Virus record (IMG/VR): IMGVR_UViG_3300029183_000031
Location: 1 to 28,945 of that record
DNA: 28,945 bases
DNA from: a virus
Taxonomy: Duplodnaviria > Caudoviricetes
Strand: one strand, 5' to 3'
The notes under the pieces: generated by a model
Told to the model about the DNA's origin: nothing
Seen by the model: the letters and a program-made list of their open reading frames with translations, nothing else
Databases searched by the model: none
Translations under genes and position numbers: made by a program
Part shown: piece by piece, positions 7,003 to 8,310 of the stretch
Layout of the letters: the number at the start of each line of letters is the position of its first letter
Position numbering within the stretch: position 1 is the stretch's first letter

Positions 7003-8310
7003 TTATAAAATCACACATCTACTTTTAGGCTCCGGCTTTACATCCTGAACATGGGGCGCATAAGGATCAGACATTAATACAGGAATTGGCTTGCTTGCTC
7101 TATTACCAAACATACCAACAGTTGATAATGCTTTCTTAGTACTTGCCACTACATCTACATAATCTTCAATTATTTCAAGCTCAATAGGCGCAGAAGGCTC
7201 AATAAAGTCCTCTTTGACTTCATTTGCTCCTAATAGACCTTGATGTACATTATGTACCATCATTAGTCCATGAGCCAGGTGTCTTTCATAAGTCGACTCG
7301 GGATGTGAGTATATTTTTAAATCCCACATTGCTTTAAAAAAGCCCACCCAATAATCTTTATTTTTATCAACATTGGTATAATCTATGTACCCTTCAGTCC
7401 ATCTAGAATTTTGGGTATCAACAATAATCCTGCCACCCATTTGTAAATAATGAAGAATTCCATCCATTCCATGCTGATCCATTGTATAGTCGAGGCTTGA
7501 ATAATATGGATCATGTATGGCTGAATTTCCCAAAGAATAGTCTGGAATGGTTCCTTCAATTTTAATATTTTTATATGAATATGGCTTATCCACTAGCCTA
7601 TAAAGATGCCCAATTTTAGTTTTTAATGAATTAATTAAATTTGGGTGTGATTGATAGGACTCACACATATGCTGCATAGCTTGAATACGCGGCTCTAGTG
7701 GAATTCTATAGTGATCCCCATATTGAATTTTATATAAGGCTTCTAAAGCTTGATAGCTACCAGGATTTTCAAAGGTAATCGATGGCCTCCATCCTTGTGC
7801 ACATAAATCAGACAACACAGCCCCCAGCGAATGACCCACGGCAGCTTCAACATCAACTCTATTCAAGAAATCTAATTCGTCCTCATCTTTTATTTCTACT
7901 TGACCATCTTTATCTATAATTTTTATTTTTCTTTTAAATCTCAAATAAAGTCTATGTGTTGCACCATCTACCCAATCAGTGATTGAATAAAATTGTCTAG
8001 GAACGATATCAAAAATCAGTTTCAAATCATCCCAAACATTTGAAAAATTATCGGTTCCACGCATAGCCATAATGAATTTAGATGGGTCTGTAGGATGGTT
8101 TACGTAATAAGCACACGCCGCGCCATACTCTAATTCACCACTATGTTCAAATCTATACCATCCTGGGGGCACTGTGGTGGGCTTTTCTGGATAGTAAACA
8201 TCATTTGCTATCATGGCGTAATTAATAAGCCTGGTTCTTTCTAAATCCTCTGCTCCAAATTTATATTCGACATGTTGTAAATTAGTTTGAGCATATTTTC
8301 TACTAATCAT
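7003..8310 (-). CDS. Alpha/beta-hydrolase (class 3 lipase-like) with C-terminal CaaX prenylation motif; putative eukaryote-targeted effector (moron)
   Basis: IMAMRGTD...VWDD, nucleophile elbow VGHSLG, ITFENPG, late His (DQHGMDGI); ends KSRCVIL*; GGAG RBS favours ATG 8310 over GTG 8316. Confidence 0.85.
   Translation of the reverse strand: MISRKYAQTNLQHVEYKFGAEDLERTRLINYAMIANDVYYPEKPTTVPPGWYRFEHSGELEYGAACAYYVNHPTDPSKFIMAMRGTDNFSNVWDDLKLIFDIVPRQFYSITDWVDGATHRLYLRFKRKIKIIDKDGQVEIKDEDELDFLNRVDVEAAVGHSLGAVLSDLCAQGWRPSITFENPGSYQALEALYKIQYGDHYRIPLEPRIQAMQHMCESYQSHPNLINSLKTKIGHLYRLVDKPYSYKNIKIEGTIPDYSLGNSAIHDPYYSSLDYTMDQHGMDGILHYLQMGGRIIVDTQNSRWTEGYIDYTNVDKNKDYWVGFFKAMWDLKIYSHPESTYERHLAHGLMMVHNVHQGLLGANEVKEDFIEPSAPIELEIIEDYVDVVASTKKALSTVGMFGNRASKPIPVLMSDPYAPHVQDVKPEPKSRCVIL

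Follow-up and report, generated by a model that had tools for sequence, protein, structure and literature searches.

A candidate phage-borne effector combining a predicted lipase fold with an LIR-like motif and a CaaX box

The stretch of DNA analyzed here (the window) is a whole virus record of 28,945 bases. It encodes a 435-aa protein with a predicted lipase-3 fold and a C-terminal CaaX box (7003..8310, minus strand). Judging from the sequence and the predicted structure, we consider it reasonably probable that this protein is an effector carried by a phage of an Aquicella-group bacterium, and that it would be exported, prenylated by the eukaryotic host, anchored in membranes and able to cut lipids. 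The lipase family to which it belongs is real and undescribed, whereas prophage-borne effectors that are prenylated by the host are known already. What is new is the combination of a lipase, an LIR-like motif and a CaaX box, for which no paper was found in the literature searched, a collection that covers few subscription journals.

The lipase and its C-terminal tail

The open reading frame is intact and opens with an ATG; another in-frame start, a GTG, lies at 8316. The motifs picked out in the initial annotation (RGTD, GHSLG, TFENPG, PSAP and EDYVDV) were all found in place, and its reading of the protein as a class-3 lipase held up. A lipase-3 fold was predicted for the window protein, with the putative class-3 lipase domain at residues ~20-300 (7411..8253, minus strand), and both the GxSxG nucleophile and the upstream RGT motif are present. 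The latter, RGTD (residues 84-87; 8050..8061, minus strand), has R in 61, G in 63 and T in 57 of 64 alignment rows. In the GHSLG nucleophile elbow around Ser161 (residues 159-163; 7822..7836, minus strand), the G, H, S and G are invariant (64/64 rows). The same is true of the histidine of a downstream QH (7471..7476, minus strand), and this residue, His280, is likely the catalytic histidine. The acid candidates for the triad in the alignment are E181, D95 and D278. Glu181 lies in TFENPG (residues 179-184; 7759..7776, minus strand), at a position occupied by E or D in 64/64 rows, and is our candidate for the catalytic acid. A profile search of the window protein against Pfam reached no family, and Lipase_3 (PF01764) was weakly matched by 5 of 9 aligned family members (best E 0.0012).

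The protein ends in KPEPKSRCVIL, with the CaaX box CVIL (7006..7017, minus strand) directly after KPEPKSR. This end had been read correctly from the outset; the description of the tail as low-complexity did not stand, and residues 402-435 are instead predicted to be disordered (pLDDT<50). CaaX prenyltransferases are eukaryotic, cytosolic enzymes. A homologue search of 1.84 billion representatives returned 114 matches, 55 of them at E ≤ 1e-10 (the core set), and 700 distinct non-lipase ORFs from all loci fetched served as a comparison set. A Cys at position -4 was found across the family, in 47/117 proteins, compared with 0-3 at each of the other last 15 positions. The core set had this Cys in 38/55 and a canonical CaaX box in 37/55, against 13/700 and 4/700 of the other ORFs; these counts, like those for the LIR-like motif below, ignore relatedness, and family members are <50% identical. 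The tails of the homologues are otherwise unalignable, yet the CaaX end is kept, which makes the box more than a chance feature. The initial annotation had proposed asking if the nearest homologues keep the box, as most of them do, and had named homologues found solely in free-living bacteria and lacking it as the pattern that would speak against an effector, which is not the pattern observed. Most of the CaaX-bearing homologues have no known source organism, and this counts against the preferred explanation.

A CaaX box with X=L favours geranylgeranylation, and the Leu of CVIL had been read in this way. Leu is the final residue in 9 of the 38 Cys(-4) tails of the core set, the others ending in M (15), I (6), Q (3), S (2), V (2) or A (1), so the cue does not extend to the family and the choice between farnesyl and geranylgeranyl is not fixed within it.

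Upstream of the box lies an acidic LIR/AIM-like sequence, IEDYVDV (7150..7170, minus strand; EDYVDV being residues 382-387). Residues 378-398 around it were modelled as a helix with low confidence (pLDDT about 54-69). The acidic LIR consensus recognized in the initial annotation is enriched in the CaaX tails of the family: LIR-like motifs with at least two acids were found within the last 50 residues of 17/47 such tails, compared with a mean of 2.1 and a maximum of 7 after shuffling, and no excess was seen in the members without CaaX (4/54 vs 2.4 shuffled). A narrower pattern, [DE][WFY][VI]x[VIL], which was picked after the tails had been inspected, matched 20/47 CaaX tails including that of the window protein (shuffled mean 0.9, maximum 5). 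The motif is located at -51 in the window protein and at -13 to -28 in most relatives. The PSAP at residues 372-375 (7186..7197, minus strand) had been proposed to bind Tsg101. This late-domain reading gained no support; P[ST]AP occurs in 4/114 proteins, in unrelated places, and the window protein probably has its PSAP by chance.

The phage, its likely host and gene exchange

The phage setting assumed in the initial annotation was borne out. Genes for a P22-like portal, large terminase, scaffold, capsid, adaptor and tail fibre are encoded on the minus strand, and Gp157, SSB and other early genes on the plus strand. Single contigs without joints from two sequencing runs cover window positions 17-11790 (X1) and 4500-9997 (X2), thus placing SSB, lipase and tail fibre on one molecule; both runs belong to one study of an aquatic metagenome and may themselves be the source of the window. 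An identical 17-mer occurs in inverted orientation at 1-17 and 28929-28945. It was also seen at loose ends in other runs, indicating a library primer, and was rejected as a terminal repeat of the phage. The virus record is a partial genome, as the phage sequence runs >1 kb further to the left. The assembled part, beyond which the genome continues, contains no integrase and gave a weak match to an Arc-like repressor. Five short hydrophobic ORFs of 37-55 aa follow the lipase gene (6335..7018, minus strand), none with a Pfam family above the cut-off. The first overlaps the lipase stop codon, and a terminator-like hairpin (6284-6311) appears only after all five. Holin-like or exclusion peptides are possible products of these ORFs.

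A strict-pattern scan of 185,579 genomes found 11 loci, one close (L005, in genome G001) and 10 distant, mostly in Rickettsiales. Relatives at a greater distance, without CaaX (L006-L015), come from Rickettsiales, Orientia and Symbiodolus, with a single one from the trypanosomatid Leptomonas. In the order of G001, 22/86 genomes matched the lipase, 15/86 at E ≤ 1e-37, a level reached by 1/397 other Gammaproteobacteria (G408). Weaker lipase-3-like matches were present in 54/400 Gammaproteobacteria (one genome unscored); the unpublished genomes G393, G125 and G381 enter only this background sample, for the lipase and the SSB counts. IcmS was detected in 72/86 genomes of the order, in 0/14 controls and also in G408, and the homologues are thus concentrated in a Dot/Icm-bearing order, in line with the intracellular host first suggested. 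We take the order to hold Aquicella, since the SSB of A. lusitana has a median identity of 87.5% to 30 SSBs of the order vs 76% to 20 outsiders. Aquicella is an amoebal pathogen within the Legionellales, in which the type IVB system is conserved and effector sets turn over quickly (PMC8896642).

The chromosomal copies fit this picture less well. Eleven copies of the order, in 10 genomes, have closed ends, and only two of these 11 carry an intact canonical CaaX box: one in G009 (L018, a tandem double lipase) and one in G063 (L022, lipase plus ankyrin repeats). In G018 (L019/L042) the gene is broken into two ORFs, the second of which bears the CaaX box, one copy in G030 ends in CKVD, and 7/11 have no CaaX; long copies in five more genomes extend past the ends of the loci retrieved and do not enter this count. 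The copies at L066 and L077, metagenome loci of chromosomal appearance, also end in CaaX. At L066, the lipase has in its neighbourhood an ankyrin protein, an insertion-sequence transposase and a second, unannotated CaaX-ending protein (201 aa, CRLL; L066:5057-5662), and the locus looks like an effector island. At L077, a eukaryote-type ERG4/ERG24 sterol reductase (L077:6642-7937) stands tail to tail with the lipase copy.

The phage SSB (2131..2541, plus strand) was used as a host marker. When 400 evenly sampled genomes, all Gammaproteobacteria, were ranked by their match to it, ranks 1 and 2 went to members of the order of G001 (185.6 and 173.3 bits), followed by the best outsider at 170.6 bits; the third order member in the sample scored 155.1. 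Across the order itself, 77 genomes had an SSB match and 53/86 scored above the best outsider. Among the 85 top SSB matches of 8,000 candidates scored, A. lusitana is the only named species. In an SSB tree the phage protein forms a long branch nearest to order members, a placement without support. For portal and Gp157 the order yielded no genuine match; among named phages, those matched best by the portal include phages of Microcystis, Rhizobium and Paracoccus (33-37%). An intracellular bacterium of the Aquicella group is therefore the likely host, a conclusion drawn mainly from the SSB. Secondary hints come from the plasmid matches of the WGR gene described below, with Legionella and Piscirickettsia in front, and from the Piscirickettsia-like ParA of the related phage G485. 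The original proposal of an effector aimed at the eukaryotic host of an intracellular bacterium is partly supported, by the CaaX box, the LIR-like motif, the order and the SSB, and has lost its PSAP/Tsg101 component.

Scans of viral and metagenome data revealed seven more lipase copies in phage context. CaaX boxes end the copies of G485 (CTIL), G486 (CSIL), L065 (CTII) and L069 (CSLM), and are lacking in 3/8 phage rows, namely G487 (255 aa, tail missing), G488/L073 and L144; L068 (CLIA) may be an eighth further copy. The window and G485 have in common Gp157 (50%) and two late proteins (32-35%), which are probably injected ones. G485 (L001:3689-9662) is a phage genome complete at 46 kb. Besides ParA it has toxin-antitoxin genes, a tyrosine recombinase and a Rep-like HTH protein, and it is hence a likely phage-plasmid; its ParA is closest to those of Piscirickettsia plasmids (62%). 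The lipase slot differs among the phages: the gene follows either the tail or early genes, or adjoins the portal or a recombinase. The gene is thus an accessory one in a variable slot, consistent with the moron proposed at first.

On a quick tree built from 86 domains, 5 changes are required to account for the 8 phage rows, and strong branches force at least 3 of these. The chromosomal L066 is the partner of G486, and L073/L144 group with the clade of G076. The tree fits repeated exchange between phages and chromosomes, with a direction that cannot be read from it, and we consider such repeated movement of the gene likely. If so, these phages would be a means by which effectors turn over among Legionellales-like bacteria. 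With an effector-like gene on several phages, whose copies interleave with chromosomal ones, phage-mediated effector exchange becomes testable. Small phrog_17872 proteins common to phage L144/L074 (L074:1048-1581) and a chromosomal locus of the order (L038:687-1076) are a further hint at the host group.

Alternative explanations and known systems

The position of the gene in the window could point to a role in phage release. The lipase lies on the same strand just past the tail fibre gene at the end of the late operon (8936..10282, minus strand; phrog_4492, E 3e-31), and the copy in G487 likewise lies downstream of the tail fibre on the same strand. No minus-strand promoter-like site was found just upstream that could serve the lipase alone. 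A strong sigma-70-like site at 8403-8430 (match 11/12) is located at a divergent WGR-domain gene (8494..8751, plus strand; Pfam WGR E 0.001, below the cut-off) and points away from the lipase, and the window has no excess of promoters (11 found vs 13.4 expected). These features, the absence of an integrase from the assembled part and the absence of an E-block-like signal agree with a lipase made together with the late genes and released when the bacterium lyses inside the eukaryote. Such lytic-phase cargo would weaken vacuole or cell membranes, allowing virion escape or avoidance of autophagy, and would benefit the phage, requiring neither lysogeny nor, possibly, a Dot/Icm step. We regard this as unlikely: the gene follows early genes in G486 and L144, sits beside a recombinase/ParA module in G485 and has chromosomal copies, and a protein released into the vacuole lumen would miss the prenyltransferases of the cytosol, as is well established. 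The acidic C-terminal E-block is a Dot/Icm export signal, although not a universal one; by a crude pattern, 10/38 CaaX members have such a signal and the window protein has none.

By features, the nearest annotated look-alikes are the Mbeg1/Tle-like phospholipases (PF26363). These and Lipase_3 have in common with the window protein the RGT, GHSLG and TF[ED]xPG motifs and the predicted fold, whereas a helical extension rich in Tyr and Trp and the tail with LIR and CaaX are additions of the window subfamily, which is mostly without an immunity neighbour. In 4/25 loci (several of them short) a homologous exported protein of ~190 aa adjoins the lipase (L001:11069-11656, L065:1849-2457, L017:2680-3255 and L005:9292-9840). 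This unannotated family, marked by FPQxxY and a C-terminal IPVxI, may represent an immunity protein or inhibitor. From this neighbour arises the reading of the lipase as a Tle-like antibacterial or dual-kingdom phospholipase toxin, deployed with an exported immunity protein against bacteria in the same amoeba, the CaaX box being a secondary addition. Precedents exist in Tle/Tli pairs and in the trans-kingdom TplE, and many chromosomal copies lack CaaX. We nevertheless hold this reading to be quite improbable, since the neighbour is absent in the window and most loci, 2/4 partnered copies keep a CaaX box and LIR-like motif that would be targetless in bacteria, and no VgrG or T6SS gene was noticed among the genes inspected beside core copies.

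The interleaving of phage and chromosomal copies on the tree would also be expected if a chromosomal effector gene had been picked up by the phage and were carried without benefit. The short, tailless copy in G487 agrees with such a passenger, as does the divergent WGR gene, which suggests capture from a plasmid or chromosome and whose plasmid matches include Legionella (18/52) and Piscirickettsia (10/52). Against it, the window copy is intact and its lipase domain forms a deep long branch without a close chromosomal sister (best identity 33%), its GC3 of 0.26 falls inside the range of the phage's genes (0.22-0.43), and family members occupy different slots on at least 8 phage contigs, which leaves a mere passenger very unlikely. 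An ordinary phage or bacterial esterase with a CVIL end by chance is scarcely credible, for although the frequency of Cys at -4 in unrelated ORFs means that a single case could be chance, the canonical boxes of the close homologues contradict it, and PADLOC defence families match 0/64 family members.

For the preferred reading, that of an exported and host-prenylated effector, a precedent is provided by Salmonella GtgE. It is likewise a phage-borne effector, encoded on the Gifsy-2 prophage (PMC5140068), and ends in CTIL, as does the lipase of G485; its membrane targeting needs the Cys and GGTase-I (PMC13423502, PMC5140068). In contrast to the lipase-3 fold and LIR-like motif found here, on P22-like podophages with a likely Dot/Icm host, GtgE is a Rab-cleaving cysteine protease from a lambdoid prophage of an enteric bacterium. 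Legionella has prenylated effectors, the Pels (PMC13081727), and translocation has been demonstrated for AnkB and PelA-K, whereas the window lipase is known from sequence; the words 'lipase' and 'phage' are absent from the main text of the Pel paper. RavL, SidB, Lpg1907, SdbA-C and Lem25 of Legionella resemble the window protein as members of the alpha/beta-hydrolase superfamily with predicted Ser-His-acid triads. They differ in that, at the date of that source, hydrolase activity had been shown for none of the nine such effectors, and 'prenyl' is absent from that paper (PMC11696984). RavZ and Lem26 reach autophagic membranes through (W/F/Y)xx(L/I/V) motifs, the latter being activated by way of a C-terminal AIM (PMC12977470, PMC8634866). 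These two are a protease and an ADP-ribosyltransferase rather than lipases, and a CaaX box is unmentioned in the available parts of those papers. Phages of Legionellales are barely known, and genomes of L. pneumophila had yielded no intact prophage (PMC12407071). LME-1 is a comparable tailed phage of a Dot/Icm bacterium, but effector cargo is unmentioned in the parts of its description available (PMC12407071). No paper on effector-carrying phages of a Legionellales-like group was found by title or abstract start.

Proposed mechanism and additional phage genes

According to the proposed mechanism, the lipase would be made in the infected or lysogenic/carrier bacterium. A crude hydrophobicity scan found neither a signal peptide nor a transmembrane stretch, and the protein would leave through the Dot/Icm system of the host. 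In the eukaryotic cell, Cys432 of the CVIL end would be geranylgeranylated, and the acidic LIR-like motif may bind ATG8 as a second targeting signal. The lipase would then be anchored on vacuolar or autophagic membranes and hydrolyse lipids there. More tentatively, and with considerable doubt, we hypothesize that a doubly targeted phospholipase, directed against autophagic or vacuolar membranes of the eukaryote, is a recurrent cargo of podophages whose Aquicella-group hosts live in amoebae. If true, this would represent an anti-autophagy enzyme of new design, with a prenyl anchor and an ATG8-binding motif. It would also open a phage route for the exchange of Dot/Icm effectors, and possibly provide the phage with a tool acting on its host's host. 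The family offers a concrete biochemical hypothesis for amoebal membrane remodelling by environmental intracellular bacteria.

Several other genes of the phage were observed. The major capsid gene (22143-24003) is divided into two ORFs that both match PF13252 (profile positions 3-106 and 106-375), with an HNH endonuclease ORF (22950-23540) between them, the pattern expected of a self-splicing intron in the capsid gene. A second HNH endonuclease (10635-11219, plus strand) is located between the tail fibre and the next late gene. Cupin, GT8-like glycosyltransferase, methyltransferase and TPR-containing genes are found among the virion genes at 18488-21619 and possibly serve virion glycosylation.
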